64,000 bases of DNA, taken from the IMG/VR virus record IMGVR_UViG_2648501449_000003. One strand, written 5' to 3'. Position numbers and translations under genes: made by a program. Positions 949-58,736 of the stretch are shown in pieces. Every line of letters begins with the position of its first letter. Position 1 is the stretch's first letter. The notes below the pieces were generated by a model. That model had not been told where the DNA came from and did not search any database. It was given only the letters and a program-made list of their open reading frames with translations. Source of the stretch: an uncultured virus (IMG/VR IMGVR_UViG_2648501449_000003). Lineage: Duplodnaviria > Heunggongvirae > Uroviricota > Caudoviricetes.

Positions 949-1130
949 CACGACCTCCAGTCCTGAGGAACCGGCCGCCCCTCGGATACGTCCCGAGCGC
1001 ATGCCCGCATGCCGTATTCGATCGCTCCCGAGTAGAACCTCGAGTATCGGCCGGCGAAGGTCCGCAAGATCCAATTGGCCAACCGTATCGCCCCGCGCTC
1101 AACAACGGTAGCGCCGCCAAGTTCGCTCAT
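948..1130 (-). CDS. small hypothetical protein started by 44-bp module copy 1
   Basis: ATG is the last 3 nt of the repeat module. Confidence 0.55.
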   Translation of the reverse strand: MSELGGATVVERGAIRLANWILRTFAGRYSRFYSGAIEYGMRACARDVSEGRPVPQDWRS

Positions 1131-1171
1131 ACCCCAATTGTCCCGCGTTTCAGGCGAAGTCGCGGTGTCTA
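1128..1171 (-). repeat. 44-bp stop/promoter/start module, copy 1
   Basis: TAGACACCGCGACTTCGCCTGAAACGCGGGACAATTGGGGTATG on the minus strand. Confidence 0.9.
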
Positions 1172-1390
1172 CCGCGTCCGGATTCTCAGTAGCCGGTTTA
1201 CGGTCACCGGATCAGACTTTAGGGCGTCTTCACTTTCCAGGATCTGGTTGAGCTTCTGGTAGTACCTCACGGGGGAGAGCCCAAACCGGTCCTGGATGGC
1301 CTTCTCTTTGTCTCCGATCTGGCTCCACCAAATGTTCTCGAATGCAAGCACTTCCGCAGTATTCGGGCCGATCACGGTATCCACATCCAT
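1169..1390 (-). CDS. DUF3263-domain protein
   Basis: LAFENIWW...KEKAIQDRFGLSPVRYYQKLN...DPVTVNRLLR pattern. Confidence 0.8.
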   Translation of the reverse strand: MDVDTVIGPNTAEVLAFENIWWSQIGDKEKAIQDRFGLSPVRYYQKLNQILESEDALKSDPVTVNRLLRIRTR

Positions 1391-1815
1391 TCGTCACCGA
1401 GGACGTGTTCAAGTTCAGCGGTTTCCATCGGGTCGAGCGTGGACATTCGCGTTCGCAGCGTTGGGCCATCCACCCACAGTCCTTCGGCCAGCTCGTCGCA
1501 ATCTTGCGTCCATCGCAAGCCGTCCACCAAATCGCCGAAGGTGATGAGTCGTCGCGCAGCGAGCTCGTCAACGATGCGTTCTTCGCGTGCGGCTGCCCTT
1601 GGGTCGGTGGGCAGCGGTCCGCGTTCCCAGTGGATCAGTTCGTGGGTCAGGGTGCATCGCCGATGGACCTGCTGCAATCGTTTGCACAGCCAAATCTTTT
1701 GGCGCGTGAAGCTGGTCAGCCCCCACACTTGTTCGGGTAGTTCCCGGCGACAATTGATGACCACATGGGGGTAGTGATCAGCGGCGTAGCGCCAGGGATG
1801 CCAACGTTGGCTCAT
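1372..1815 (-). CDS. ImmA/IrrE-family Zn metallopeptidase (putative anti-repressor)
   Basis: RRCTLTHELIH (HExxH) and EE...A motif; lies near the XRE repressor. Confidence 0.85.
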   Translation of the reverse strand: MSQRWHPWRYAADHYPHVVINCRRELPEQVWGLTSFTRQKIWLCKRLQQVHRRCTLTHELIHWERGPLPTDPRAAAREERIVDELAARRLITFGDLVDGLRWTQDCDELAEGLWVDGPTLRTRMSTLDPMETAELEHVLGDEWMWIP

Positions 1816-1822
1816 GGTGGTG

Positions 1823-1845
1823 AAGCTAGCGTCACCCACTGACAA
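1823..1845 (-). promoter_or_regulatory. RecA-NDp/PafBC-type DNA-damage promoter, leaderless, for the ImmA-like gene
   Basis: TTGTCAG-TGGGTGACGC-TAGCTT, then 7 nt to ATG; fits TGTCRG-N10-TANNNT. Confidence 0.75.
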
Positions 1846-1944
1846 AAATGGCTCTGACCAGGAACTACATGGATGTAACTTCTCCACGGCAAGGGCCTGC
1901 CAAATCACATCAGAGAAACCTCAGATGTGCGTTATCGTTGAGTC

Positions 1945-2214
1945 ATGACCGCCGCGATCAGCTACGAAAGCGTCTCGTCCATCGTGGAGACGGACGCTCA
2001 TGCCGAGTTGCGCGTGTCTGGCAAGCCGAACGCGAAGTATGTGCAGGTCACCGAGTCGGATGGGACTATCCGGCTTATCCCGCTATCCCTGCTGCATGAG
2101 TCGGAGCGGGCGATCCTGGAAAACCCCGGTCTGTACAACCAGCTCCGAAGGGGTTTGACGGAGTTCGCCGAGGGGCAGAGCGTGTCTAGTGACTGGTTGT
2201 TCGCTGACGAGTGA
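1945..2214 (+). CDS. putative antitoxin (AbrB/MazE-like N-terminus)
   Basis: DGTIRLIP beta motif and ENPGLYNQLRRGLTEFAEG C-terminal pattern. Confidence 0.5.
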   Translation: MTAAISYESVSSIVETDAHAELRVSGKPNAKYVQVTESDGTIRLIPLSLLHESERAILENPGLYNQLRRGLTEFAEGQSVSSDWLFADE

Positions 2215-2333
2215 GCGCCGAGGAAGTTCGGTTTAGTCCATCCGTTGACCGATGGTTACGGGTCTTTTTACCAAGGTTAGGGTCTATAGACCCTAACCTT
2301 GCTCCCTTTTGGATCGGCCCTGACTACCGTTGA
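2211..2333 (+). pseudogene. possible truncated RelE/ParE-like toxin
   Basis: GTGA-coupled ORF VSAEEVRFSPSVDRWLR... that degenerates at the palindrome. Confidence 0.3.
2272..2301. repeat. perfect 30-bp palindrome
   Basis: CAAGGTTAGGGTCTA|TAGACCCTAACCTTG. Confidence 0.9.
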
Positions 2334-2853
2334 ACACTGCCGCCAAACCGATCACGTCAAACACCGCAATACCGCCCCCGATCCACTCGTGGCCGAGGTA
2401 AGCGAACCATGCGGACACGGCAAACCCAGCGAGAACGGCTGCTAGCCCAAATCGTTGGCCTTGACTGCGCCCCTTATCGGGTATGCGGTAAGGGGCTTCG
2501 CGCATATAGATATCCGAGTCGACCGTCTTGCGTAATGACGAAACATATGTGTCGTACAGCTCTGGGGTGTTGTGCTTCATCCGCTCCATTTCCGCTGGAT
2601 CCGGTGTCAGCAGAGGCAGATGCAGGTGATTCTCGGTGAGATACGCGGTGAGCTGTGTTAGCGAGAGACTTGGCGAAGGTTCCGATTCGCCCGCAGCAGG
2701 CTCGCGTTGAGGTTGTACGGCTCCGGGGCTGGCATCATCTCCCTCAGTGCTTCGTACGTCGCCTCGCCCTTGATGTCGAACAGGCTTCCCAGGCCGATCA
2801 GGAACGCACGCGTCCGCGTCCCCGTGTTCGTCTCCCGAGTGCTCATGGCTCAA
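2293..2853 (-). CDS. DUF2335-like membrane protein (start uncertain)
   Basis: PLLTPDPAEMER...GQRFG plus two C-terminal TM helices. Confidence 0.55.
   Translation of the reverse strand: MSHEHSGDEHGDADACVPDRPGKPVRHQGRGDVRSTEGDDASPGAVQPQREPAAGESEPSPSLSLTQLTAYLTENHLHLPLLTPDPAEMERMKHNTPELYDTYVSSLRKTVDSDIYMREAPYRIPDKGRSQGQRFGLAAVLAGFAVSAWFAYLGHEWIGGGIAVFDVIGLAAVFNGSQGRSKREQG
2658..2846 (-). CDS. small hypothetical protein overlapping the DUF2335-like ORF
   Basis: ATG ORF containing FLIGLGSLFDI. Confidence 0.4.
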   Translation of the reverse strand: MSTRETNTGTRTRAFLIGLGSLFDIKGEATYEALREMMPAPEPYNLNASLLRANRNLRQVSR

Positions 2854-2930
2854 CGATAGCTCCTTGTCATGCGGTATGTGAATGTGTTGTGCATGACGCT
2901 ATCGGTCGGCATGCGGTTCAAGTGGGTAGA

Positions 2931-3725
2931 TCACGAGTCCATGGGTCGCTGCGGCTTATCCTCGTCCGTCACCCTGCGTGCGGCTAGGCCGTAGTCGCCT
3001 GGGTTGAAGTCGACCTCCAAGTCGGATCTGTTGGGGTACATCACCTCCTCGTTTTCGTTGCCTTCCGGCGATGCTGACGGTTGCGGGGACGGGGTGGGGT
3101 CGGATGATGCGGCATGGAGGCCCTCCTTTTGTCGTTGGTCCCAGTAGCTCGTGTTATTGAATCCGTTGAGTTCTAGTTCTTGCTTGTCAAGAAACAGCCG
3201 TTGTAAAGCCGGTCGGGCAGCTGGCCCTACGCCTGCGGTCAGGAGTTGATCTGCCCAAAGGTTGGCCAGGGCGACGGCGACGCGGGCATTCTGCGCCATC
3301 GCGGCTCCAGGATCTGGGGACTCGTCGGCAACCTGACGCATTGCTGCAAGGGCTGCTTCCCATGCGGTTAAGTACCGCGGTGCGGTTTCCATCGCATGGA
3401 GATCGTCGACGGTTACGCCAGCGTGTTCTGGTCTTGGTGGGGCCGGTTCCGAAGGGGCCGGGTCGACATCAAGGGGCTCAGGCTCGGCTCCCTCGAAAAT
3501 CTTCCTGACCGAGTGCTTGGCCCAGCCGAGACTCTTCTCTAGGCGTCTATACGAAAGCTCGCTGACCTCCTGGCCATTCTCAATGGCACTCATTGTGGTG
3601 CTCGAAGGGCCGTTCGGCATGTTGTCTTGCCGGTACCCCAGCCACTTGCGCCGACTCTCAACGATCTGTCCAAGTCGAAGTCGGGCTTGTTGCGGGGATT
3701 CGAGCCGCTCCTGACGTTCGGTCAT
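2931..3725 (-). CDS. immunity repressor, XRE HTH
   Basis: RRKWLGYRQ...PSSTTMSAIENG HTH; divergent from cro. Confidence 0.8.
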   Translation of the reverse strand: MTERQERLESPQQARLRLGQIVESRRKWLGYRQDNMPNGPSSTTMSAIENGQEVSELSYRRLEKSLGWAKHSVRKIFEGAEPEPLDVDPAPSEPAPPRPEHAGVTVDDLHAMETAPRYLTAWEAALAAMRQVADESPDPGAAMAQNARVAVALANLWADQLLTAGVGPAARPALQRLFLDKQELELNGFNNTSYWDQRQKEGLHAASSDPTPSPQPSASPEGNENEEVMYPNRSDLEVDFNPGDYGLAARRVTDEDKPQRPMDS

Positions 3726-3727
3726 AC

Positions 3728-3909
3728 GGCAAGACTGCCAAAAATTTTTGGCAAACCATAGTCCCATTCGGCTAACGACATGGGTGTGAGCAGCCGGAGC
3801 GCCGAATCTCACCAGTAGCATTCTGCACGCCAGGGCAAAATTGCCACAGAATTGCTTGCGCTTGCGACGGTTAGCCGTTACAGTCGTCCGCATGGGAAGC
3901 AAAATTGCC
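3728..3909. promoter_or_regulatory. divergent immunity control region with operator-like repeats and the cro promoter
   Basis: GGCA-N4-TGCC at 3728-3739 and 3834-3845, AGCAAAATTGCC at 3898-3909; palindrome TGCCAAAAATTTTTGGCA 3736-3753; TTGCGC-17-TACAGT (3856-3884) 7 nt before cro ATG. Confidence 0.65.
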
Positions 3910-4218
3910 GCAAAACGGCGATATGACCGTCAGCGGGAGCGTAGAACCCCGCCTCATGTCAGCCTCCAGACCTTCCGCTTGGCGTTGAAGCGAATCGACC
4001 CTGATGGGCACTGGGACCTAGACGACGTATGCGAACGCATCGAAGCGATCCACGGCGACCGTCCAGCGCGCGGCACGTTGAGTGCTATCGAGAACGGGGC
4101 GCGGGGAGCGTCGGCGCAACTGCTGGCCGCCCTCGAAGAGGCGTACAACCTTCCGGCTGGCTCGATCACCACGGATTACGCTCCGCGCGCAACCCCTGCG
4201 ACATCCGAGGTGGCCTGA
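3892..4218 (+). CDS. Cro-like HTH regulator
   Basis: RGTLSAIENGARGAS HTH; first gene of the rightward operon. Confidence 0.75.
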   Translation: MGSKIAAKRRYDRQRERRTPPHVSLQTFRLALKRIDPDGHWDLDDVCERIEAIHGDRPARGTLSAIENGARGASAQLLAALEEAYNLPAGSITTDYAPRATPATSEVA

Positions 4219-6698: not shown

Positions 6699-6727
6699 CC
6701 CAAGACGGTAGATGGAAAGGAGTGGTC

Positions 6728-16829: not shown

Positions 16830-17143
16830 GTGACGAACCTTCGGACGCACAGAAGCTCATAGCGGAAGTGATAGCCACGCACCGCGCTTTATTCGATGGA
16901 GAGGCTTGCGACGCCTGCGACTGGAAGTTCACCAATGAGTATTACGGGCACGACGAACACGTTGCCGTAGAGGTGGATAAAGCCCTTGGAGGACTCACGC
17001 GGAAGCGGCGGATTGACTATCAATGGCGCGAGACGGGCGAGGTGCATCACGACCGATTCTTTGAAGGGAAGCCCGTCCCCAAGACGCGGCTGCACTATGT
17101 GCAGCAGTCCCGTTGGGCGTCTGGCTGGACGGTGACCGAATGA
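16826..17143 (+). CDS. hypothetical protein
   Basis: Coupled ORF. Confidence 0.6.
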   Translation: MSDEPSDAQKLIAEVIATHRALFDGEACDACDWKFTNEYYGHDEHVAVEVDKALGGLTRKRRIDYQWRETGEVHHDRFFEGKPVPKTRLHYVQQSRWASGWTVTE

Positions 17144-17447
17144 GCTACATCGACATGTTCGGAATCGAGTATGGCGGCTGCGGTGACTGTGATTGTGATC
17201 ATGGTTGTCAGGGCGTTGGCTCCGACGATGAGGCCAAGTTCTACCCCGAGGCTTCCGATGACTGACTACCAAGACACCGGTAGCCGACGGAAACCTACGG
17301 CATACACCGAAACGGGGGCCGCTGAGCGGGTGTGCCCGGACTGTAGTGCCCCAGAAGGACATCCCTGTAGATGGATAGCCATGGATGGGCAGGGGGATTT
17401 AGGGAAACCAAGGCATTGGCCGCATGAGACACGTTGGAGGAAATGAA

Positions 17448-17765
17448 ATGCGTGACGATATTCACCCTGGACCGCGCATCATCTCCGGTAAAGCGGAACT
17501 ACCCTGCCTGAAACCGGAGCCCTGGATGATCCAGGCGTCCTGCGCCACCGCAGACCCGGACGCGTTTTTCCCCCATAAGCGTGGCGACGGTGATAGCGAG
17601 TCGATCACCGTGCAGTACCAATACGCCAAGAAGATATGCCGCTCATGCCCAGTCAGGGTTGAGTGTTTGACCTACGCGATCGTCAACGACGAACGCGACG
17701 GGATCTACGGCGGCTTAGGCCCTCGTGAGCGCGCGAAGATCATGCGTAACAGGGAGGCAAGCTGA
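17448..17765 (+). CDS. whiB: WhiB-family transcription factor
   Basis: C...DPDAFFP...AKKICRSCPVRVECL...GIYGG. Confidence 0.9.
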   Translation: MRDDIHPGPRIISGKAELPCLKPEPWMIQASCATADPDAFFPHKRGDGDSESITVQYQYAKKICRSCPVRVECLTYAIVNDERDGIYGGLGPRERAKIMRNREAS

Positions 17766-18079
17766 TGCCGCACTCAAGCCCTACCGACTGGATAGCCGGT
17801 GGAAGTGTCGCCGCAGACATCGTTGGATGCCTCACCGGTCTGGTCGCGGACCTGTCCTGGCAGGATAAAGCGGCGTGCCGTGGACTCCCTACGGAGTGGT
17901 GGTTCCCGGACCAAGGCGGCAGCCGGGAATGTAAGCGGGCCAAGGAAATCTGCCACGGCTGCCCAGTCAAACTCCAATGCCTCCAATTCGCGATAGAGGT
18001 ACACGACCAGCACGGAATTTACGGGGAGCTGTCATTGAAGGACAGGCGCAGGTGGAACCAGGAAAGGAAAGCGGGCTAG
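17765..18079 (+). CDS. whiB: WhiB-family transcription factor (second copy)
   Basis: WQDKAAC...WWFP...AKEICHGCPVKLQCL...HGIYGE. Confidence 0.9.
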   Translation: MPHSSPTDWIAGGSVAADIVGCLTGLVADLSWQDKAACRGLPTEWWFPDQGGSRECKRAKEICHGCPVKLQCLQFAIEVHDQHGIYGELSLKDRRRWNQERKAG

Positions 18080-18120
18080 ACACCGCGAATGTCAGTGTAT
18101 CGGAGGATAATTGAGGTATG
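18077..18120 (+). repeat. 44-bp module, copy 2
   Basis: TAGACACCGCGAATGTCAGTGTATCGGAGGATAATTGAGGTATG. Confidence 0.9.
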
Positions 18121-18549
18121 GGAATGACTGATTTACAGAACGTCCACGAGCGCATTGCGGGCAAGCGTATAGCCTCCGTCGAGGCCGACGGTACGAGGCT
18201 GGTGCTAAACGATGGCACTGTGCTGCATCTCTACATGTCAGACAGTGACTGTTGTGCTTCCGCCGATGGGAAGTGGGTAATCCAGCCGGACGCGCTGGAG
18301 GCGATTATTACCGGCGTTCAGGTTACACCAGACGCGGATCGGAGCGGTTATGACGGTGACGGAAATACCAACTACGCCACCATCTCAATTCTGCACAACC
18401 AGAACCCCATTGCCCTTGCAGACTGCTATGCCAATGACGGTAATGGGGGCTACTACTTCTCCGTGCTATCCCTCCGTGTTGTCATGCCCGGTGACGAAGA
18501 TGACGTCAAGGTGGAAGTCCTGAACTCTGACTCCTCGTCCAGCGATTGA
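18118..18549 (+). CDS. acidic hypothetical protein
   Basis: DCCA...GNGGYYFSVL; started by module copy 2. Confidence 0.75.
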   Translation: MGMTDLQNVHERIAGKRIASVEADGTRLVLNDGTVLHLYMSDSDCCASADGKWVIQPDALEAIITGVQVTPDADRSGYDGDGNTNYATISILHNQNPIALADCYANDGNGGYYFSVLSLRVVMPGDEDDVKVEVLNSDSSSSD

Positions 18550-18819
18550 GGAGGTAGTGAGAGTTGAGTGCTGAACCGCTGCAATGGGACCACAACCCAG
18601 ATATTCGCGTCCCAAAGAATGGGTGCCGCGCCGAAGTTGACGGCGGTGCTTACATTCTGTTCAAGTACGGCGCTAGTTCGTGGCAGGTGCTTTTCAGCAC
18701 TGGGTGGCATATACCCGATGAGGTCTATCTCGGCGACAGCGAATCAGACGCACTAGCCGCAGCAGAAGCTCACCATATCGCCATTAGGCAGAGAACGATC
18801 TACCGTCGAACGGGCAGGA

Positions 18820-19194
18820 GTGACGATGCCGCAGCGGATTCAGCGGAAGCGCACTAGGGGTTGGCGAATGCCCGAGGGTGCTATCTACGTCGGGCGACCG
18901 AGCCAATGGGGCAACCCGTTTCGACCTGTTCTCGTCGGTGGCGAGTGGCTCATAGAGGATGACAACGGCGTCCAGTACGACGGGTTCGGGAGCAAGGTAA
19001 GCGCTATCGGTCGGTGCGTTGCGCTCTACCGGTCGCTCGATATGACGTTCATGACAGACGCAGACCTAGACGAGTTCGTCGCGCCGCTACGGGGCCACGA
19101 TCTCGCCTGCTGGTGCTCTCTCGATTCCCCTTGTCATGCAGACGTGCTGCTTGAACTCGCTAACGATCCACCGTCGAACGGAGAAGCTTTGTGA
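18820..19194 (+). CDS. DUF4326-domain protein
   Basis: IYVGRPSQWGNPF...LRGHDLACWC...CHADVL. Confidence 0.85.
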   Translation: MTMPQRIQRKRTRGWRMPEGAIYVGRPSQWGNPFRPVLVGGEWLIEDDNGVQYDGFGSKVSAIGRCVALYRSLDMTFMTDADLDEFVAPLRGHDLACWCSLDSPCHADVLLELANDPPSNGEAL

Positions 19195-19333
19195 GCGAAC
19201 TACGTAGAGCACTGTTGGTAGCCAAAGCGGAAGCGGCACTTATCCCCACCGGCCGACGGGCTGAGCTCGACCGCAGATTCACTGCGGCCCAGAAGGCGGC
19301 ACAGGCTCACGCCACGTACAGGAGGTCCGCTTA

Positions 19334-20011
19334 GTGTCCGTCTCCGACAGCTTCTTTCTCGATAAAGGCTCCCAACACAAGCTCCGTGAAGAGTTGGCCA
19401 GCATCCCCCGCATGATCGGGGAGCTGTCCGTCACCCTCACCCGCCAGGCTCGCATCCAGAGGCCAGGGTTGAGTATGTCCCGAAGGCCCAAGCCTGAGTC
19501 TCAGGTCCCCATCCATATCGGGGCACACAACGCCGCTGACGTACTGCACAACTGCCTAGGTACGTGGGTGAGGCTGGTATGCGAACAACGAGCGATCGTG
19601 TGGGATAAGGGCAACGACATCATCACGCTGGCCAAGTGGCTGCGAGTCAACATGATCGCCCTAGCCCTCACTGAAGGTTCAGAAGAAGCGTACGAGGACA
19701 TCAAAGCCGCTATCGATGACTGCTGGCGACAGATAGACATCCCCGCCGACGATGACATTGTGATCGACCGAGGACGAGTACATGAAGCGAACAAACACAT
19801 CGTCACCGCCGACACCATCGAACCTATCGCCCGCCGGATAGGGGAGATGGGAAAGAAGCTGAATGCGCAGCGGGTGCACTCGCTTACCCGTGGTGGGCAT
19901 CTGCGTCCAGTCTCTAGCGACCCGGACACGGGTAAGAAGTTCTACCGACTGGGGGATGTGCTGCACGCGCACAACAACTGCGAGAAACGAGACCGAAAGA
20001 AGGGCGCATGA
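19334..20011 (+). CDS. phage hypothetical protein with possible C-terminal HTH
   Basis: 225-aa ORF ending in ...FYRLGDVL. Confidence 0.65.
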   Translation: MSVSDSFFLDKGSQHKLREELASIPRMIGELSVTLTRQARIQRPGLSMSRRPKPESQVPIHIGAHNAADVLHNCLGTWVRLVCEQRAIVWDKGNDIITLAKWLRVNMIALALTEGSEEAYEDIKAAIDDCWRQIDIPADDDIVIDRGRVHEANKHIVTADTIEPIARRIGEMGKKLNAQRVHSLTRGGHLRPVSSDPDTGKKFYRLGDVLHAHNNCEKRDRKKGA

Positions 20012-20208
20012 GCGACGGACGCGGCATGTACATGAAGTACCGAGTTGAGCGGATGGACGGCAAGGATATGGGGCCATGTTTCATCCTTGAATACAAGAAG
20101 GATCGCCACGCGCGGGTGGCACTTGCGGCGTATGCCGACGCGTGCGCCGAGGACAATCCTGGACTAGCCCAAGACCTGCGGTGGACGCTAGAGGAGCTGG
20201 AGCGGTGA
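20008..20208 (+). CDS. hypothetical protein
   Basis: Coupled ORF; homologous to an internal domain of 9319..10314. Confidence 0.7.
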   Translation: MSDGRGMYMKYRVERMDGKDMGPCFILEYKKDRHARVALAAYADACAEDNPGLAQDLRWTLEELER

Positions 20209-20504
20209 GGGTCGGGACCTGTCCGAAGTGTAAGCACTTGGAAGGTCGACACATCCAGTCCACGTACTTCGATGAAGAGACGTGGACTGGCCGATTCGTG
20301 TACGCCAGGTGCGATTGTGGCTGCACCCACTACGTCGTAGTGGAGCCGGTCTAGTGTCGGCCCTCGACTGTGAGGGGAGTGACCTAGATCCTGGTTGGTG
20401 CTGCACCCATAGATGCGATTTCAGGGACCCTAGGCATCCGCACTGCTGGCAGAACTGTGACGAAGAAGATTGCGCCGCCCCTGAGTGTGATTGGGTTGAG
20501 TAGT

Positions 20505-20693
20505 TCACGCTGGTCGCACATACTGCGCAGGCCAAGGTATCTCACGCATCTTCCACGCCTGCGTAGGGTTGGCCGCAGTGACCCAAACGATAGGCATATC
20601 GCGTCCGGGAACTACCCGAGTGGTAGTTAGACACTCAACTTCACCACCGGTTGCGGTGGTTACGTAGACACGCATTCTAGCTTCAATACCCAT
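20505..20693 (-). CDS. small hypothetical protein
   Basis: Leftward ORF with AT-rich upstream region. Confidence 0.45.
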   Translation of the reverse strand: MGIEARMRVYVTTATGGEVECLTTTRVVPGRDMPIVWVTAANPTQAWKMREIPWPAQYVRPA

Positions 20694-20784
20694 ACGTCTA
20701 GCGTCGGTCTTGCCAAAAGATCTGTAAAGAAAAATCTATGCGACACCGCGTTATGGCAGTGCCTTATGGCAAGCCGCAAAGGGA

Positions 20785-21045
20785 GTGAAACTGATGAACG
20801 TATGGATAGTCTCTGCGCATCGGTCCTGGGGCGACAGGATTGAATACCACGGACACAGGGGGGATACCCACCGCTGGATGGGCTGGACGCGACCCATACC
20901 CAAGGTGGGGGAAGTTATTGAAACTGAATTGAAGTCCGGACGGGCGGCCCGCTTTCGGATAGTTGAGGTTGAGCGCGGGTACGGCACGGATGATATGTGG
21001 TGGGCCACAACCTCGGACGCGCCCATTTATGGAGCGACGACGTAA
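20785..21045 (+). CDS. hypothetical protein
   Basis: 86-aa ORF. Confidence 0.55.
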   Translation: MKLMNVWIVSAHRSWGDRIEYHGHRGDTHRWMGWTRPIPKVGEVIETELKSGRAARFRIVEVERGYGTDDMWWATTSDAPIYGATT

Positions 21046-21056
21046 CTGCCTCCACC

Positions 21057-21085
21057 TTGCATAAGTATATCGGTTCTGATATATT
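21057..21085 (+). promoter_or_regulatory. SigA-type leaderless promoter and operator of the TA operon
   Basis: TTGCAT-17-TATATT, 6 nt before GTG; imperfect palindrome ATATCGGTTCTGATAT in the spacer. Confidence 0.7.
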
Positions 21086-21091
21086 AATGAG

Positions 21092-21424
21092 GTGACCGAC
21101 GAAAAGCCTCTCCGCTGGATAGGTACCTCACTTGAGGACCTACGGGACTTCCCCGAAGCGGCACGGCAGGACGCCGGTTACCAACTGGATAGGGTTCAGC
21201 ACGGCCTAGAGCCCCACGACTGGAAGCCAATGCCAACAGTCGGCAAGGGCTGCCGCGAGATACGCGTACGCACCGAAGACGGCGCGTACCGTGTGTTCTA
21301 CGTAGCCACCCTTGGGGATGTGGTGTTCGTACTGCACAGCTTCGTCAAGAAGTCACAGAAGACTTCCCAGCAAGACATCAACACCGGTAAGGCTCGATAC
21401 AAGAAAGCGCAGGAGGAACTATGA
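21092..21424 (+). CDS. RelE/HigB-like (Gp49/DUF891) toxin
   Basis: SLEDLRDFP...GYQLDRVQ.G...EIRV...YRVFYVA...VLHSFVKKSQKT. Confidence 0.9.
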   Translation: MTDEKPLRWIGTSLEDLRDFPEAARQDAGYQLDRVQHGLEPHDWKPMPTVGKGCREIRVRTEDGAYRVFYVATLGDVVFVLHSFVKKSQKTSQQDINTGKARYKKAQEEL

Positions 21425-21672
21425 GCGTATGGGACGACATCGCCGACACCCCGCGCGAAGCGGAGAACCTTCGCGTGCGGTCTGAGCTGATGATGGCAAT
21501 CGAAAAGAAGATCAACGAGCGCGAATGGACCCAGGTCCAGGCCGCCGAAGCACTCGGACTGACCCAGCCTCGGGTGTCGGATCTGCTGCGCGGCAAGATC
21601 TCCAAGTTCTCCTTGGATGCTCTCGTGGACATCGCTTCCGGGTTGGATGTGCACGTGAAGGTGTGCGTCTGA
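21421..21672 (+). CDS. HigA-like XRE antitoxin
   Basis: TQVQAAEALGLTQPRVSDLLRGKISKFSLD. Confidence 0.9.
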   Translation: MSVWDDIADTPREAENLRVRSELMMAIEKKINEREWTQVQAAEALGLTQPRVSDLLRGKISKFSLDALVDIASGLDVHVKVCV

Positions 21673-21757
21673 TTGCGACACGCCGACCAGGGGATATACC
21701 CCTTAACCGCTGTCAAGTAGTAAACTGCGCATAGGCGCGACTTACACCCATTCTTTT

Positions 21758-21792
21758 AAACCCCCATCGACATTTGTTCGGTGGGGGTTTTT
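21758..21792 (+). terminator. intrinsic terminator
   Basis: AAACCCCCATCGA...TCGGTGGGGGTTTTTT. Confidence 0.7.
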
Positions 21793-22384
21793 CTATGCCC
21801 AAACGGAGGTTCCCTTATGCCTCTGTCTCGTGTCCGCTGCTGCATCCCCTGTGGCCGTATCCGCTACGCCCCCTGCTCTGCAGGGTGTCGAGTAGATCCC
21901 GAGAACGACCCAACAAGCTGGACAGAACAGGTGCCGCCGAGCGATGAAGCTGAGTAAGGAAGCGCGCAATACCGTCGCCGACTGCATCAGTAAGGGCATC
22001 CACCTGACGCTGGACGTTCAGTGCGATGGCGAGCCGATGGGCGGCTGGTGCGATAAGTGCGAGAAACCGTCGATGGTCGAAGTGCAACTGCGTGGCATCT
22101 CCACTGACGCCGTGTACGACCTCGGACCCGCCGTCGTATGTGCAAACCATGAGGCTGGCGATGATTGAATGTCTTGGTTGCGGCTCGACGGTGGGGCAAG
22201 ACGGCGATTGCCCGCGCCCCGAACACTGCGGAAACTGCCCACCTTGGGACTGTGACGAATGCGGCCAGCAGTGCTCGATCAACACCCCTTGCGGGTGCTG
22301 GATTTTCCTTGAAGGCATGAACCTCGCCGACATCAAGGCGGTACTCGCCGCAGCCGATCTGAGTGTCAATGTGGAGGTGCCGCC

Positions 22385-22681
22385 ATGCTCGACAGATTCT
22401 TCGCGGCACTAGCCGGCGCCATGGCCCCTCCACTCGTGGCCATGTGTGAGCGCATCGCGGATAAGAAGATCCCTGACGACACCGTGCCGAAGTTCATGGA
22501 CGGCCTGCTGGATATCGCCCGCGACGGCGTTGACCGCGCCGTGAGTGTGGTGCAGACGTCCGCTGACGGTATTGCCGGTAGCGCGGAAGCTGAACTAGGT
22601 CAGCTCGGCTCGGAGATTAGGGGAGTGGTCAAAGCGGCCAACCCCATAGATATTCTCGGCAGCCTGTTCGGGCGACGCTAG
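22385..22681 (+). CDS. hypothetical protein
   Basis: GGAGG RBS; stop TAG is the first 3 nt of module copy 3. Confidence 0.65.
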   Translation: MLDRFFAALAGAMAPPLVAMCERIADKKIPDDTVPKFMDGLLDIARDGVDRAVSVVQTSADGIAGSAEAELGQLGSEIRGVVKAANPIDILGSLFGRR

Positions 22682-22722
22682 ACACCGCTGATGTCGCTGC
22701 ACCGCAGTAAAATTGAGGTATG
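22679..22722 (+). repeat. 44-bp module, copy 3
   Basis: TAGACACCGCTGATGTCGCTGCACCGCAGTAAAATTGAGGTATG. Confidence 0.9.
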
Positions 22723-22896
22723 AGCATTGAGACCGAGCGGCAGTTGAATCGCCGCTGCATTGAGCTGCAAGACGAGATAATCCGCTGGGGCGAGAAGGCG
22801 CAGTGGGCGCTTGAGCAAGATGACACCGGATGGTGGGGCGATGTCCTCGGTGGCATCGTCAAGCGCGGCAAGCTGATGGCAGAGAAGGGCACCTAA
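22720..22896 (+). CDS. 58-aa hypothetical protein (not in ORF track)
   Basis: MSIETERQLNRRCIELQDEIIRW...; started by module copy 3. Confidence 0.65.
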   Translation: MSIETERQLNRRCIELQDEIIRWGEKAQWALEQDDTGWWGDVLGGIVKRGKLMAEKGT

Positions 22897-23007
22897 CGAT
22901 GTGCCCTCCACGCTGTCAGAACTGCATCCATCCGCAGCATGACCACGAAGGCTGGTTTGGTCGCTGCACCCGCGACGACTGCGAATGTAAGGCAATGCAG
23001 GACTGAC

Positions 23008-23051
23008 TTGCCCCTACAGCCTCTCCGTTCTACTATCGAACACATGTTCGA
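23008..23051 (+). promoter_or_regulatory. leaderless promoter overlapped by a LexA (SOS) box
   Basis: TTGCCC-17-TACTAT; TCGAACACATGTTCGA 23036-23051 matches TCGAAC-N4-GTTCGA. Confidence 0.85.
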
Positions 23052-23289
23052 CAAGGTGTCATACCGTATCGAAGGTGATGGACCCGTCACAGCGGTACTC
23101 ACTTACCAAAACCGGGAGTACCGGCACACCTCCCGAACCATGTGGCTCGGACACGAAGACGGCATGCCCCAAGGCTCCATCCAACTCGACGAGCATGTGT
23201 GGGCGCGGCTACAGCGCATCAACGGAACCATAGAAGCCACCATCACCGACTCTAAGACTGGTGAAAGCTACACCCTCACACCTGAATAG
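23044..23289 (+). CDS. putative SOS-regulated hypothetical protein
   Basis: ATG lies inside the SOS box; MFDKVSYRIEG... Confidence 0.7.
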   Translation: MFDKVSYRIEGDGPVTAVLTYQNREYRHTSRTMWLGHEDGMPQGSIQLDEHVWARLQRINGTIEATITDSKTGESYTLTPE

Positions 23290-23330
23290 ACACCGCGACT
23301 TACGCTGTAGCTCGGTAAAATTGAGGTATG
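23287..23330 (+). repeat. 44-bp module, copy 4
   Basis: TAGACACCGCGACTTACGCTGTAGCTCGGTAAAATTGAGGTATG. Confidence 0.9.
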
Positions 23331-23564
23331 GATGATCCCGAGATTGAAGTCGCTGAGGCGGTGTGTAAACGGCACAACTGGGACGGCATGATGTTTTGCG
23401 CTTGCACTGCCGCTGCTCGTGAAGCTTTGAAGCGAGTGGGCGCCGATCTGCAATCCGTCGATGGCGTCTTAGGTCTGCTTCATCATCGAGGGCTTGTTGA
23501 CTCCGAGCGCAATAGAGCTGATGTGAAAGCTGCCCTCGAAATCGTACAGAGGTACACCCGATGA
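23328..23564 (+). CDS. hypothetical protein
   Basis: Started by module copy 4. Confidence 0.65.
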   Translation: MDDPEIEVAEAVCKRHNWDGMMFCACTAAAREALKRVGADLQSVDGVLGLLHHRGLVDSERNRADVKAALEIVQRYTR

Positions 23565-23836
23565 CTGAACCATCTCAAGCCCATATAGACCGGGCACGTG
23601 AACTCGGCCTCTCTTTCGATCCTTCTGATACATCGGATGAAGAGTTAAGCCGTGCTATCGCAACGTATGAGCGGGTTTACATCGAGGCGATGACCGAGAA
23701 TGCTGGTAGGGACACTGATACTCCTACTGAGCGCCGCAAGATGCTGGGCGTATGGACTCAGCGCGATGAAGAAGAGGCCAAGGAAGCCGCTGAACGGCGG
23801 CGGATGTTCGGCTCCCGACGAATCCCACCCGCCTAG
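23561..23836 (+). CDS. hypothetical protein
   Basis: ATGA-coupled; stop is the TAG of copy 5. Confidence 0.65.
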   Translation: MTEPSQAHIDRARELGLSFDPSDTSDEELSRAIATYERVYIEAMTENAGRDTDTPTERRKMLGVWTQRDEEEAKEAAERRRMFGSRRIPPA

Positions 23837-23878
23837 ACACCGCTGATTCCTCTGAAACGTCGGATAATTGAAGGTATG
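23834..23878 (+). repeat. 45-bp module, copy 5
   Basis: TAGACACCGCTGATTCCTCTGAAACGTCGGATAATTGAAGGTATG. Confidence 0.9.
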
Positions 23879-24148
23879 GACATCACCGAGAAGCCATTGA
23901 CCAACCTGGCTGACACAATACATACAGCCCTGATCGGACACAGGCCGGACGACTACGCCTGCTACTACAAGCAGCTTTTCAATGTGTTTGGAGCGCCCGG
24001 CATCCCGAACACCTACGAGGCGGTACTCAAGCGTTACGGCAGGGTAATCCATCGAGAGACATTCTGGCGGCGCAAGAGCGCAGAGAAGCAATGCATCGCA
24101 TGGAAGCGCTTGTATGACGCCGTCGTACTACCACCTCCACAGTCCTAG
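23876..24148 (+). CDS. hypothetical protein flanked by copies 5 and 6
   Basis: ATG from copy 5, TAG from copy 6. Confidence 0.65.
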   Translation: MDITEKPLTNLADTIHTALIGHRPDDYACYYKQLFNVFGAPGIPNTYEAVLKRYGRVIHRETFWRRKSAEKQCIAWKRLYDAVVLPPPQS

Positions 24149-24189
24149 ACACCGCTGATCCCGTTGAAACGCGGGATAATTGAGGTATG
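24146..24189 (+). repeat. 44-bp module, copy 6
   Basis: TAGACACCGCTGATCCCGTTGAAACGCGGGATAATTGAGGTATG. Confidence 0.9.
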
Positions 24190-24354
24190 AACGACGAATT
24201 GAGCTTCCTGCTTGAGGCGTCGCCGGAAGAGTGGGATACCTTCATTGGATGCCCACATACAGGCAAGTCCTACACGGAAGTGGGACGGCTAACCGGCGAG
24301 GTGTTCACGCGCTGCTGCGACTGTCACACGGCTTTGCCTAATCTCCCGTCCTAG
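24187..24354 (+). CDS. 55-aa Cys-containing hypothetical protein (not in ORF track)
   Basis: MNDELSFLLEASPEEWDTFIGCPH...RCCDCH; started by copy 6. Confidence 0.6.
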   Translation: MNDELSFLLEASPEEWDTFIGCPHTGKSYTEVGRLTGEVFTRCCDCHTALPNLPS

Positions 24355-24628
24355 CTGAATCCCTTTGGGAGGTAATCATGCTTGATGGTCAACCGTTGGG
24401 CGAGTACCCGGAACTGGGGCCGACGCACACCGCCGAGTATTTCGAGCTCCTAACACTGGCCTACTTAGCCAGGCTCATGGGTTACCACATCTAGTGCCAT
24501 GCCCCTCACTGCTAACCAGCTCCGCATCCTAGAGGCGTTGCAGCGGTTACGTATAGCCCGTACTGAGGGCGATGTTGACGCCGAGCTCGTGGCCTACAGC
24601 CGCATGGATGAGCTACTGGATCGTGAAC

Positions 24629-24910
24629 CTAGGGGCATAGGTTCCGTTTCGCCGATCGCGCCATAGCCAACAGATTGGCTGGTGTCGCGTTCGGATAGTT
24701 GGAGTGCGAGGCGACCTGCTCGGGGGTTTCCCCGTTGCGCAAGTCATTGCACATGCCGTTCCCGGCGGCCAGTAGGAACGGCCGGGACTGCCACATCACT
24801 TGAAAACCCTGCCCGGACAGTTCGTCCAGGTAGGCGTCATCGTCCGCGTACGCCGCGGGCGCGAAAACAATGCTGGCCGCTACGGCGGCTGCAGCTGCGA
24901 TCTTGATCAT
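24629..24910 (-). CDS. DUF732-domain secreted protein
   Basis: Signal peptide, DDDAYLDEL...GNGMCNDLRNG...LCP; TACGAT -10 six nt before ATG. Confidence 0.8.
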   Translation of the reverse strand: MIKIAAAAAVAASIVFAPAAYADDDAYLDELSGQGFQVMWQSRPFLLAAGNGMCNDLRNGETPEQVASHSNYPNATPANLLAMARSAKRNLCP

Positions 24911-25115
24911 TGGCGGATCGTAGACCTCCACCCCGACGGGTACAGGCGAAACGGGAGATCAGATGGCCGTGCAGCACTGCGAGGGTTGCCCCTCGTGAGG
25001 CGATCCAAGGATTGGGAGACCCCCCGAATTCGTAAGCGAGACTTGGGACGGGCGGTCGACCCAACTACCTGTTCTTGCGGGGACGCCGAATGCCCAGAAT
25101 GCATGGACTGGCTAG

Positions 25116-25712
25116 ATGACTAGCCTAATCGACACATGCGCGGTATTTGGGTGTGGCATAAAGCGTCGGACGCGCGGTCTATGTCCATCGCATTACCAGC
25201 GATGGCGCCGACACGGGGATCCACTAGCTGGAGGCCTGCCAGCCGGCGCACCATTTGAGGATAGGTATTGGTCCAAGGTGGATAAGTCGGGCCGCTGCTG
25301 GCTATGGACCGGGGCGAAGAATGATGCCGGATACGGTCAGATCAGCGTGGGCGGGAAGATGGTTTACGCCCACCGCCTCTCCCTGGAGATGTCCACGGGG
25401 AGCACAATCCCACCCGGGATGGACGTTGACCACATGTGCCATACCCGGCACTGCGTAAACCCTAATCACCTCAGGCTGGCGACGCGTAAGCAGAACTTGG
25501 AAAATAGGCGGACCGCCAACTCATCATCTAAGTCGGGCATCCGTGGCGTCTCATACTCAATCAGCTCACGTCGTTACCTAAAGCCCTGGCTAGCGCAGGT
25601 CAGGTCAAAGGGGCAGCCGACCTACTCGGGCTATTTCAGCACTAAAGAGGAAGCTGCCGCAGCGGTCGTTTCAGCTCGACTTCGCATGATGACACACAGT
25701 CAAGAGGATTAG
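25116..25712 (+). CDS. HNH homing endonuclease with AP2-like domain
   Basis: CWLWTGA...AHRLS...DHMCHTRHCVNPNHL...SGIRGVS...GYFSTKEEAAAA. Confidence 0.9.
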   Translation: MTSLIDTCAVFGCGIKRRTRGLCPSHYQRWRRHGDPLAGGLPAGAPFEDRYWSKVDKSGRCWLWTGAKNDAGYGQISVGGKMVYAHRLSLEMSTGSTIPPGMDVDHMCHTRHCVNPNHLRLATRKQNLENRRTANSSSKSGIRGVSYSISSRRYLKPWLAQVRSKGQPTYSGYFSTKEEAAAAVVSARLRMMTHSQED

Positions 25713-28753: not shown

Positions 28754-29170
28754 ATGGCAGCCTTCGTGTACTTCACTGTGGCCGACACCTATCAGGCCAT
28801 CGTCTCTGATGGGTCTGATGAGGGTAGCGAGCCGGATCTGAAGATGATTTCCGGCACGGTCACTTTCACTCCGTCGGTGAAGGAAGTGCTGGCCACCATC
28901 TCCGATATCCCCACCACGGTGCGTTTGGAGCCGATCATTGGCCGCATCGAGGAAGACGGTGTGCTGAAGACTCTCGATTCCACACCAGGTGTGAAGCTGC
29001 TCGCCAACACCGAAGCAATCGGGCCACTGCCTGAGCTGACGTATCGGGTGGACTTCACGAACGTGGTCTACAACCGCAAGACCAACCAGCGCATCGAACC
29101 GTTCCGGTTCGCCGCTGCCACAAGCGCCACCACGCTGCGCTTGTCTTCGGTTGAGCGCCTGCCGCTTTAG
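28754..29170 (+). CDS. beta-rich virion-associated-like protein
   Basis: SGTVTFTP...G.I...G.L...GVKLLAN...YRVDF, resembling actinophage minor tail N-terminal modules. Confidence 0.5.
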   Translation: MAAFVYFTVADTYQAIVSDGSDEGSEPDLKMISGTVTFTPSVKEVLATISDIPTTVRLEPIIGRIEEDGVLKTLDSTPGVKLLANTEAIGPLPELTYRVDFTNVVYNRKTNQRIEPFRFAAATSATTLRLSSVERLPL

Positions 29171-29244
29171 GCACACGTACTAGGCGCCCCTACCCGTCCA
29201 AAGGTAGGACCAGTTAAGTCAAGTCGAGAATTGAGGGAACAACT

Positions 29245-55207: not shown

Positions 55208-55255
55208 CAACTGAATAGAGCCCTCGAAGCGCCCCATGAAAGGCGGTTCAAACAA

Positions 55256-55477
55256 ATGTCCATCCGGGAACAACTGGCCGAGGCCGCCAAGCCGAAGCAG
55301 CGCTGCACATGCTGTGCATGGGTCGCTACGCAGAGTGCAGATGACCGTAAGGCTATTGAGGAATGGGTAGCCGAAGGGAAGTCGATTGAGGCGCTTGTCC
55401 GCGTGCTGCGGAATGAGGGTCTTCCGGTGGGGCCGGTGCAGTTCCGGCGTCACGTGCGAGAGTGTGTGCGCTCTTGA
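55256..55477 (+). CDS. small Zn-binding/HTH protein
   Basis: CTCC...RRHVREC. Confidence 0.65.
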   Translation: MSIREQLAEAAKPKQRCTCCAWVATQSADDRKAIEEWVAEGKSIEALVRVLRNEGLPVGPVQFRRHVRECVRS

Positions 55478-57314: not shown

Positions 57315-57316
57315 CT

Positions 57317-57541
57317 ATGAGTGAACACCCTGACGAACTCATACAGAAGTACGTCGAAGCAATGGATCAAGAACCGGGCTGGCGGGTATCAGATTTCGTG
57401 CTCATGGTCGGGTTCGAGAGAGTCCAAGCGGACGGCACCATAGAGCACACTTACGGCGTGCATGAAGGTGAGAACCAATCGCCCTGGGCTACACACGGTT
57501 TAGTCGCCAACGGTATAGAACACCTAGAACGAACTGAGTGA
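57317..57541 (+). CDS. hypothetical protein
   Basis: 74-aa ORF, QSPWATHGL. Confidence 0.6.
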   Translation: MSEHPDELIQKYVEAMDQEPGWRVSDFVLMVGFERVQADGTIEHTYGVHEGENQSPWATHGLVANGIEHLERTE

Positions 57542-57862
57542 CTACGGCTGGCTGTTCCAATGGGCTAGGTCTTCATCGTCGATCAGTGTGACGACTATCT
57601 GGGCGATCCGCTCATCACTCTCGTCAGTGCCGTAGTCCACGATCCACGCCCAGATGTCGTAGCCGCCGTCGCCGAATCCTGCCGAAAACTGCACCCCGGA
57701 CCCGTACTTACTGAATAGGTTGTGACCACTACCGATTCCTGGATACTTGGCTGGGGCAAAAGCGGGGTCGGTGATCGCGGCCATGGCCGAGTCGACCGAG
57801 ACGCCGCCGATGCGTTCCCATCGACCGTTGCGGCCTGGGGCTGGTGTTGGTGGTTCACCCAT
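57542..57862 (-). CDS. DUF4241-like protein
   Basis: VSVDSA...FSAGFGDGGYDIW; started by module copy 7. Confidence 0.55.
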   Translation of the reverse strand: MGEPPTPAPGRNGRWERIGGVSVDSAMAAITDPAFAPAKYPGIGSGHNLFSKYGSGVQFSAGFGDGGYDIWAWIVDYGTDESDERIAQIVVTLIDDEDLAHWNSQP

Positions 57863-57903
57863 CCCTCAATTTTACGCCGTTGCAGTCGAAGTCGCGGTGT
57901 CTA
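57860..57903 (-). repeat. 44-bp module, copy 7
   Basis: TAGACACCGCGACTTCGACTGCAACGGCGTAAAATTGAGGGATG on the minus strand. Confidence 0.9.
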
Positions 57904-58042
57904 GGCCCCGCGCGAGGAGAGCGCGCAGGGAACTAGCTCACCGTACCGCGCTCTTTTTTAGATGTATCTGGTGTTGCGTCGAAAAATAGCCCGCTGCCTG
58001 CATGTTTCTTTTTTATCCACAACCTAATCGGGGAGGGTTCCC

Positions 58043-58285
58043 ATGGCCTTACATCCATCTGATTGGGCGTGGATCACTATGGCTGCTGGGATCGTCGCCT
58101 ACGAGATAGCTTGCCCACCCGGGGAACTGCTATCGGACGCCACTGCACGGTACGGGCAGTCCCACATGTTCCTCAGCTCCGCCGTGATCGGGGTAGTGGC
58201 CGTTCATCTGCTGCGCACCACCGGACTGCTGCGGTTCATCCCCGAACAGCTCGACCTAATCCATTTGTTGGCTTCACTGAAATGA
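58043..58285 (+). CDS. membrane protein
   Basis: Two hydrophobic segments, GELLS; GGAGG RBS. Confidence 0.7.
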   Translation: MALHPSDWAWITMAAGIVAYEIACPPGELLSDATARYGQSHMFLSSAVIGVVAVHLLRTTGLLRFIPEQLDLIHLLASLK

Positions 58286-58347
58286 GAGGACACCGCTATG
58301 TGCAGAGTTGAGACCTGGAAGTGTGAGCCGACAGTGGAGACTTCGCG

Positions 58348-58695
58348 GTGAACATGGCCGACTGGCAGCTGCCGCCACTTGCTCAAGACGGCTGGGGCCT
58401 AGCGACCTGGGTAGTAATAGCATTCGTCGTCATGTGTTTCCTCGGCATCCTGTGGACGCTGCAACACTTCGACCTCAAAGCCATCCGGCACCAAACAGAG
58501 AACTCCCACGACACCAACCTGCGTGACGACATCGACGAGATACGCGAGATGGTCCGCGACGGAATGGCCGACATCCGCAGCGATATCTCCGGTATCCGAA
58601 AAGACATCGGAGGACTGCGCGGAGAGCTGCGCACCGAACGCGAAGAACGCATCGAATCCGACGCCCGCATATGGCGGGGACCCTGGAAGGCTTAG
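58348..58695 (+). CDS. DUF2746-like membrane/coiled-coil protein
   Basis: NSHDTNLRDDID...DIGGLRGELRTEREERI. Confidence 0.75.
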   Translation: MNMADWQLPPLAQDGWGLATWVVIAFVVMCFLGILWTLQHFDLKAIRHQTENSHDTNLRDDIDEIREMVRDGMADIRSDISGIRKDIGGLRGELRTEREERIESDARIWRGPWKA

Positions 58696-58736
58696 ACCCC
58701 GCCGTTAGCGCTTACCGCCAATAGAATTGGGGTATG
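58693..58736 (+). repeat. 44-bp module, copy 8 (divergent)
   Basis: TAGACCCCGCCGTTAGCGCTTACCGCCAATAGAATTGGGGTATG. Confidence 0.75.

Follow-up and report, generated by a model that had tools for sequence, protein, structure and literature searches.

A 44-bp intergenic unit, present eight times in a 64,000-nucleotide stretch of DNA from an uncultured virus (IMG/VR record IMGVR_UViG_2648501449_000003; the whole stretch is called the window below), is very probably a self-contained stop/promoter/start socket of MabA prophages that is active in the lysogen and to which a role in gene exchange can be ascribed by inference. By its sequence, the window represents a Mycobacterium abscessus prophage of cluster MabA1: the 8 kb compared (17000–25000) were 100% identical to several M. 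abscessus prophage or phage records, including prophiGD22-1 (MW584171.1), whose annotation could be transferred to the window at an offset of 1318. ProphiGD22-1 belongs to subcluster MabA1, as does the one that type strain ATCC 19977 carries (PMC8092301, Table 1). The window begins immediately past the integrase gene, and the prophage end is located at about 59257, within a tRNA-Met gene (59216–59290).

The initial annotation had described eight copies of fixed length, one of them longer by 1 nt, in which a TAG ends the preceding gene and an ATG starts a small open reading frame (ORF). This description was borne out, with seven exact copies and one divergent copy found against about zero expected by chance. 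Copy 1 lies at 1128–1171 on the minus strand (profile E-value 3.9e-13), where its TAG is the stop of gp6, a DUF3263 helix-turn-helix (HTH) gene, its -10 hexamer is GACAAT and its ATG is that of gp5. On the plus strand, the TAG of copy 2 (18077–18120) terminates gp49, the second of two WhiB genes, and GATAAT precedes the ATG of gp50 (DUF7448); copy 3 (22679–22722) similarly joins the stop of gp63 to the ATG of gp64 and copy 4 (23287–23330) that of gp65 (HTH) to gp66 (HTH), both with TAAAAT. Copy 5 (23834–23878, plus strand; E-value 6.9e-10) is the one of 45 nt, with 7 nt from the -10 to the ATG, and connects the stop of gp67 with the ATG of gp68, which in turn is followed by copy 6 (24146–24189, plus strand; GATAAT) and gp69. 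Copy 7 (57860–57903, minus strand), near attR and facing leftward, has no upstream ORF and leads through TAAAAT into gp115, and the divergent copy 8 (58693–58736, plus strand), with the box TAGACCCCGC and the -10 TAGAAT, lies between the stop of gp117 and the ATG of gp118. The TAG was thus the stop of the preceding ORF at seven of the eight copies, and the terminal ATG opened an ORF of 55–143 amino acids (aa) at all of them; when the eight downstream proteins were compared pairwise, no BLASTP match was obtained at E≤1, as the claim that they are mutually unrelated had it.

Alignment of the eight copies with 30-nt flanks placed all invariant columns within the module, and the flanks did not align. 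The conserved 5′ box, TAGACACCGC, occurred exactly seven times in the window and, with up to one mismatch, 13 times versus 3.7 expected, a count reached in 0 of 100 shuffles. The full module pattern, which permits the C of the copy 8 box, had seven matches in the window versus 0.00 expected and missed only copy 5, owing to one extra base in the 3′ block. When the window was scanned with an nhmmer profile of 37 unique relatives, seven copies were recovered at E-values of 7e-10 to 9e-15 and copy 8 weakly (E-value 4.9, 3′ part); there was no match in 24190–57859, hence none in the head/tail operon, where none had been claimed.

Transcription start sites were taken from the differential RNA-seq (dRNA-seq) table for M. 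abscessus ATCC 19977 (PMC4974804, Additional file 1, sheet "Primary+Secondary"). According to this table, each of the eight modules in the type-strain MabA1 prophage is followed by a start site that coincides with the A of the ATG, and the 5′ untranslated region (5′UTR) is 0 for the seven start sites assigned to the gene directly downstream (PMC4974804). Strings identical to copies 2, 3, 4, 5, 6 and 8 stand at start sites 1773427 (MAB_1757, 165.5 reads), 1778029 (MAB_1766, 1887.5 reads), 1778637 (MAB_1768, 1808 reads), 1779185 (MAB_1770, 508 reads), 1779496 (MAB_1771, 266 reads) and 1815646 (MAB_1815, 736 reads), respectively, each with a 5′UTR of 0 (PMC4974804). In the copy 1 slot, the type strain carries its own variant, with start site 1756936 (497 reads) listed under MAB_1724c as secondary, and copy 7 was paired with start site 1814774 (733.5 reads), which equals the coding-sequence end of MAB_1812c (PMC4974804). 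The table prints promoter strings for plus-strand genes and secondary start sites (PMC4974804); for copy 7, the first 40 of 44 bases exactly matched a copy in genome G001, placed consistently with start site 1814774. Counting copy 7, seven of the eight type-strain modules were taken as identical to window copies. Read numbers followed the quality of the -10 hexamer, being 733.5–1887.5 for the four copies with TANNNT and 165.5–508 for the four with GANNNT (PMC4974804, same table). In a companion table, ribosome-profiling values for the five genes looked up were 2.3–28.5 reads per kilobase per million, and peptide coverage (4.0) was given for MAB_1768 only (PMC4974804). It was also noticed that in Additional file 1 the minus-strand genes for which two or more start sites are given all show one identical 52-nt "primary" promoter string, likely a spreadsheet artefact; since this string fills every such row, the one printed for MAB_1812c is not its real upstream sequence (PMC4974804).

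The initial annotation had proposed a leaderless promoter with a hexamer 6 nt before the ATG and had made its case depend on a start site at that ATG; in the published map of the near-identical type-strain prophage the start is indeed at the ATG, and RNA-seq over the window is consistent with it. For the latter, raw stranded reads of three runs (X21, X22 and X24) from two studies, and one contig set, were mapped to 17500–25500. In X24, sense depth rose from 4.5 just before copy 2 to 436 in its bin and 790 after it, and from 10–14 before copy 3 to 250 in the corresponding bin and 2917 beyond, a rise of about 100-fold at both copies, and reached 1915 in the bin of copy 4 and 4111 in the next. 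The same profile was seen at lower depth in X22, and X21 was weak, with chiefly the toxin-antitoxin (TA) pair expressed. Pile-ups of 5′ ends at 18128, 18137, 22738, 22743 (110 molecules) and 23338 fell 10–23 nt past the ATGs, an offset that we ascribe to the missing outermost 5′ bases common in libraries of this kind. A SigF-type promoter (consensus GTTT-N15-17-GGGTAT), whose start would fall about 8–11 nt after the module ATG, fitted two pile-ups at +10, but was rejected because its -35 part is unconserved and dRNA-seq places the start at the ATG.

Two stretches of plus-strand transcription followed from the copies in this region. One, from copy 2, covers gp50–gp56 (18118–20700), with an X24 depth of 436–790 that goes down to 65 and then to 4.9 in 20704–20970; the other, of one or more units from copies 3–6, covers gp64–gp71 (22720–24950), with an X24 depth of 250–4111 that ends at 1.5 past 24976, and was alike in X22. 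Depth did not fall at copies 4, 5 and 6, and the module is therefore not a strong terminator. Since the flanking phage genes (17500–18033, 21772–22572 and 24976–25500) had depths of 0–17, the expression from the modules is lysogenic and not a result of lytic induction. Relative to the TA pair, depth in the copy 3–6 region was about 0.02 in X21, 0.3 in X22 and 2 in X24, a span of about 100-fold. In a published list of genes responding to cystic-fibrosis-sputum-like medium, MAB_1766, 1767, 1769, 1770 and 1771 were up (log fold change [logFC] 1.2–3.5), as were the TA genes. The genes behind copies 3, 5 and 6 were thus included (logFC 1.3–3.5), whereas MAB_1757, 1768, 1812c and 1815, behind copies 2, 4, 7 and 8, were not listed. 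Because the copies differ in this response, the eight do not form one tight regulon, and of the dispersed regulon suggested in the initial annotation only the part concerning copies 3, 5 and 6 is backed by this list.

Other transcripts were observed in the same region. The TA pair (21092–21771) had the strongest expression in all three runs, with a depth of 531–1768 and RNA 3′ ends at 21761–21771; its type-strain counterpart has a leaderless start site of its own (1776401, 978 reads), behind an AT-rich promoter that differs from the module (PMC4974804). A minus-strand RNA at 20170–20703 (depth 119–150 in X24 and 80–89 in X22) lies in and beside a 439-bp gap without annotated genes (20355–20793), between the copy 2 unit and the TA pair, and no start site for it appears in the ranges searched of the published table (PMC4974804). 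The McProf prophage was considered as a further source of expression data and was not used, as it belongs to cluster MabR and not to MabA.

Conservation within the module was counted on 37 unique variants chosen as having the ATG in this register. The -10 hexamer, (T/G)ANAAT, occupies positions 30–35, with T in 17 and G in 20 variants at position 30, and with A31 and T35 in all 37 (T35 being fixed by the search pattern); its spacing to the ATG is 6 nt, and 7 nt in copy 5. ANNNT or TANNNT is the -10 consensus of mycobacterial start sites. The earlier view that the middle varies needs correction, as T14 (37), T20 (35), G21 (37), A23 (35), C25 (36), G29 (35) and A31 (37) are kept in 35–37 of the 37 variants. 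In all but 3 of 175 listed instances, the ATG came within 2 nt after the GRGG block. A GAGG lies 1–2 nt before the ATG, upstream of the start site; since it precedes the start, it is not in the transcript and no Shine-Dalgarno sequence is present there. Stop codons occur in all three frames, as TAG at 1–3, TGA at 20–22 (A22 in 18/37) and TGA at 36–38 (35/37), so that any upstream gene ends inside the module. Counted by 21 clusters of upstream flanks, the upstream ORF ended at the TAG in 9, at the TGA of 36–38 in 7 and in the third frame in 1, and no long ORF was found in 4; the TAG rule is thus weaker outside the window (9/21 clusters), although by listed instances the TAG is in the frame of the upstream ORF in 143 of 175. 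Together, the stops in all frames and the leaderless start make the module an exact ORF-to-ORF socket. A conserved hairpin was considered as a core feature and dropped, because a stem is available in one variant class only and without consistent covariation.

The module is restricted to the prophage. In a scan of 101 genomes, one per species of the genus, with the exact pattern, only one genome (G001) had matches, namely six copies in a single 58-kb span and none elsewhere in its 5.1 Mb; the reversed pattern, used as a control, had none in the 101 genomes. A host regulon motif was rejected accordingly, there being no copy outside the G001 prophage and none in the 100 other genomes. A species-representative collection of 596 Gb gave 11 matches, all single and in unrelated organisms, where about 70 were expected by chance. 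Among 50,697 phage records, 17 carry the pattern, all of them M. abscessus phages of MabA1, MabA2 or MabA3, and in IMG/VR at least 156 stretches with at least 175 copies were found on at least 56 contigs.

Breakpoints between related prophages fall at the ends of the module. The flanks (200 nt each) of 176 listed instances grouped into 21 upstream and 52 downstream clusters, and the WhiB gene end, together with the module behind it, was joined to 13 different downstream clusters. Where the upstream flank was the same and the downstream flank differed (123 cluster pairs), divergence began at module positions 45–48 in 75 pairs, at 41 in 8, at 11–15 in 30 and at 50–62 in 10; where the downstream flank was the same and the upstream flank differed (10 pairs), it began at -6 to 0 in 9. 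In syntenic BLAST comparisons with four annotated relatives, matches ended at module position 44/45 for copy 2 (three relatives) and for copies 4 and 5 (one each), a match began at module position 1 for copy 4 versus CCUG48898T-2, and for copies 4 and 6 the module alone matched in some relatives. Comparison of CCUG48898T-2 with locus L152 revealed a 406-bp insertion of two genes between two identical modules, and one gene family (D18) occurred behind modules in two slots, the leftward one on the attL side and the rightward one after WhiB. The alignment of close relatives therefore puts breakpoints at the ATG or at the TAG/5′ box, with junctions lacking the module also mosaic, and of the conserved junction proposed in the initial annotation the gene-swap part is retained, while an integron-like, site-specific exchange is unsupported. 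Since the breakpoints lie in two zones and not at one nucleotide, homologous exchange in the end blocks fits better than site-specific recombination. These comparisons support, within the limits given below, that the module marks gene-exchange junctions among related prophages.

A segment at 29168–29247 (plus strand) may be a decayed slot and was not counted as a copy; it has GAGAATTGAGGG, with the wrong spacing and no 5′ box, and in other prophages a true module comes after the homologous upstream gene end (flank cluster U13). It was also observed that gp55 (20008–20208) in the window has a 4-base ATGA-type overlap with gp54 and no module, whereas a related gene (92% over 197 nt; flank cluster D39) stands directly behind a module in other prophages, so that the same gene can be wired either way.

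Based on these data, the following scheme is proposed. From a SigA-type -10 at positions 30–35, transcription begins at the A of the ATG, which is both the first transcribed base and the first base of the start codon, and a leaderless mRNA of this kind needs no ribosome-binding site. The promoters fire in the lysogen while the neighbouring lytic genes are silent, and drive short runs of small genes. The data show the start sites, the activity in the lysogen, the confinement to the prophage and the breakpoints at the module ends. As to the recombination, the unit is repeated and spans the exact distance from stop to start; we infer that whole ORFs would be exchanged, gained or lost when copies recombine, the simplest route being homologous exchange within the conserved 5′ and 3′ blocks, and would then be expressed at once. 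A speculative extension, which we regard as on the doubtful side, is a plug-and-play socket for acquiring and testing genes. In this view, a bare ORF recombined between two sockets would be transcribed and translated in the lysogen with neither a promoter nor a ribosome-binding site of its own; a dedicated phage factor acting on the box and the middle, perhaps the WhiB-like protein encoded beside the most conserved socket and working on SigA, would adjust all sockets to the condition of the host; and integron-like gene capture would be brought about by homologous exchange and leaderless expression, without an integrase.

Several observations weigh against this scheme. No -35-like hexamer was found 16–19 bp upstream of the -10 in the 37 variants, whose positions 7–12 read CCGC(G/T)(A/G), and TAGACA (positions 1–6) was rejected as a normal -35 box because the spacer would be 23 bp; with no -35 at the usual distance, basal promoter function does not explain the conservation of positions 1–29. 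The start sites were mapped in the type-strain prophage and not in the strain of the window, copy 1 of the window has no identical mapped counterpart but only a mapped homologue of its slot, and RNA-seq over the window places starts only within +10 to +23 of the ATG and for copies 2–6 only. With regard to exchange, junctions were broken in 77 of 110 informative cases without a module versus 11 of 11 with one in the comparison with the four relatives; mosaicism is thus also common where the module is missing. Identity confined to the module between different genes could also be expected from conserved function without recombination, and the middle is not homogenised between copies, an observation that speaks against gene conversion being frequent over the unit as a whole.

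The conservation of positions 1–29 beyond what a mycobacterial -10-only promoter needs raises the possibility that the module is chiefly an operator, whose 5′ box and middle bind a phage regulator, for example a WhiB-like protein with SigA or another DNA-binding protein, that sets how strongly lysogenic genes across the prophage are expressed. This would add to the promoter function, and we consider it quite conceivable, although the balance is on the other side. The exact pattern is absent from the remaining host chromosome (G001), output relative to the TA pair varies about 100-fold among runs, the genes of copies 3, 5 and 6 are up by logFC 1.3–3.5 in sputum medium, and in each of the five prophages compared a module comes after a WhiB gene. 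Two WhiB-family genes (17448–18079, plus strand; Pfam PF02467, E-values 1.6e-20 and 3.6e-18) lie immediately 5′ of copy 2, and the last of them is kept in all five MabA prophages, with 62–98% identity in the four relatives and a module after each; a WhiB-like protein is on these grounds a candidate partner of the conserved 5′ box. However, no dyad or repeat symmetry was evident among the conserved positions of the 37 variants, the WhiB genes were barely transcribed (depth 4–17) where the module genes were high, and with the genes of copies 2, 4, 7 and 8 missing from the sputum list the copies do not respond as one set. That TAGACACCGC and the middle positions serve as a regulator site is a guess. 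A stoperator-like function, in which the immunity repressor would bind an asymmetric box at many intergenic sites and block elongation, is very improbable. The box is asymmetric, intergenic and always oriented with transcription, and the stoperators described for MabJ prophages are likewise short, asymmetric, aligned with transcription and spread over many small gaps between genes (PMC9934374). The cluster A/MabJ sites are, however, 13–14 bp long, bound by the repressor and co-varying with it (PMC9934374), whereas five prophages with identical module boxes have unrelated repressors (264, 128, 126, 150 and 145 aa), the best pair being 32% identical over 72 aa and the other pairs giving no meaningful match; moreover, the stretch between the repressor and cro genes holds no such box, and the sites drive transcription in the lysogen, with the repressor present. 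An operator of the immunity repressor was rejected on the same ground of unrelated repressors among prophages with identical boxes.

An element acting in read-through RNA, be it a terminator or attenuator hairpin, a processing site or nut-like boxA and boxB, with the 5′ ends produced by cleavage, also appears improbable. Variants of the GATAAT type can form a stem of 6–7 bp with a TGAAAC loop, folding against shuffles gave z-scores below -1.7 in 10 of the 37 variants, and PeSLs (promoter early stem-loop elements) of other phages pair a promoter with a terminator stem-loop (PMC2839356); but the other variants had z-scores of -1.63 to +1.25, with a mean minimum free energy of -8.7 versus -7.1 for shuffles, and, except for one invariant pair, the stem pairs are kept in 11–28 of 37. 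Depth was steady at copies 4, 5 and 6, the roughly 100-fold lower upstream depth makes a precursor unlikely, Rfam found only a tRNA in the window, and dRNA-seq, which enriches primary 5′ ends, calls the sites as start sites (PMC4974804). Equally hard to credit as the stoperator is a site-specific recombination site, similar to integron attC, at which a dedicated recombinase would capture single-gene cassettes. Integron attC cassette arrays and the boundary sequences of lambdoid phages are conserved short sequences that border exchangeable genes, and in the integron one promoter serves the whole array. In keeping with such a site, cassettes are bounded exactly by modules, the 406-bp insertion between two identical copies is precise, and the same gene recurs after modules that differ in slot and orientation. 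On the other hand, breakpoints range from -9 to 62, are concentrated in two zones and share no single point of crossover, the sole annotated recombinase is the prophage integrase beside the tRNA att site, folding of the 37 variants gave no consistent hairpin, and related prophages encode general recombination functions, such as the ERF-family and Gam-like proteins of prophiGD102-1. The module thus differs from an integron in having no integron integrase, attC-type hairpin or fixed crossover point, and in that each socket has its own promoter.

The closest known systems to the leaderless socket are the PeSLs of T4-type phages and the extended start-associated and start-associated sequences (ESAS and SAS) of cluster K mycobacteriophages. 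As in the module, the PeSL unit extends from the upstream stop codon via a promoter to the downstream start codon (PMC2839356). Both are concentrated before small ORFans in variable regions and are largely absent from the core virion modules, and in both cases close relatives differ at these places by insertions, deletions and replacements (PMC2839356, PMC4122927). PeSLs differ in having -35 and -10 boxes of the sigma-70 type with AT-rich DNA upstream, and in possessing a Shine-Dalgarno sequence as well as a stem-loop proven to terminate transcription (PMC2839356), whereas the MabA module has a -10 only, a leaderless mRNA without Shine-Dalgarno sequence, no consistent stem-loop and a GC-rich conserved box. 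PeSLs act early in lytic myoviruses of Gram-negative hosts, the module in lysogens formed by a temperate actinobacterial siphovirus. Mini-circles have been demonstrated for PeSLs (PMC2839356, PMC4122927); for the module, indels and replacements bounded by its copies were observed.

ESAS and SAS share with the module that a conserved, oriented intergenic motif of 46–47 bp with a putative SigA promoter is repeated just before the ATGs of non-structural genes from different families, in one phage cluster and not in the host, with some of the downstream genes expressed in the lysogen (PMC3203893, PMC11373665). In the ESAS, however, the -35 and -10 are spaced by 17–18 bp and accompanied by an imperfect inverted repeat of 15–17 bp, after which comes the SAS, resembling a ribosome-binding site; this SAS is a 13-bp GGGATAGGAGCCC lying 3–9 bp before the start codon (PMC3203893, PMC11373665), whereas the module transcript starts at the ATG. 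With up to two mismatches, the SAS consensus had no match in the window, the sequences being unrelated, and no consistent ESAS-type inverted repeat or -35 was found in the 37 module variants. The ESAS promoters are also described as putative (PMC3203893, PMC11373665), whereas the start sites of the module are mapped. The module is best filed as a leaderless, lysogen-active form of the promoter-bearing junction repeats known from other phages, and not as a new class of mechanism.

The start sites are already public in a supplementary table, and the repeat is not pointed out in the literature searched. It is not named there, including the portions covered of PMC8092301 and PMC9934374 and the main text of PMC4974804, with bioRxiv supplements and subscription journals outside the search; among the matches listed for the string TAGACACCGC, only unrelated uses as primers were seen. 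The main text of PMC4974804 never uses the word "prophage" and so leaves the repeat without comment. In clinical M. abscessus, MabA1 prophages rank among the most frequent ones, and the type strain has one too (PMC8092301, Table 1); they were previously described as mostly silent save for the TA pair. The present analysis adds eight further lysogen-active promoters, each before small genes without assigned function, some of which respond to sputum-like medium. It thereby offers a concrete list of prophage genes expressed in the lysogen, of relevance to host physiology or phage exclusion, and a compact, mapped family of leaderless promoters for mycobacterial genetics, and it extends promoter-bearing recombination junctions from lytic T4-type phages to temperate phages of actinobacteria.

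Most genes downstream of modules had no known family in Pfam, PHROG or PADLOC. Among 18 module-driven or co-transcribed proteins, Pfam matched two, to domains of unknown function only, and PADLOC gave no match, that is, no defence function was found among these 18. The overlapping genes gp51 (18564–18857) and gp52 (18826–19194) matched the first 78 and the last 122 positions, respectively, of the 230-position phrog_32227, and look like one gene that is split or frameshifted. Several GGCAAAATTGCC-like palindromes, unrelated to the module box, are present between repressor and cro (3726–3891) and are probably the true operators of the 264-aa repressor of this prophage. At the other end, the tRNA-Met gene (59216–59290) straddles attR, and within the searched ranges of the published table the closest plus-strand start site upstream of it is that of copy 8. 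A terminator-like hairpin with a T run is located between the two, at about 59005–59060, and TAGGCTACAGT-like repeats are present near the tRNA-Met gene, at 59150–59185.

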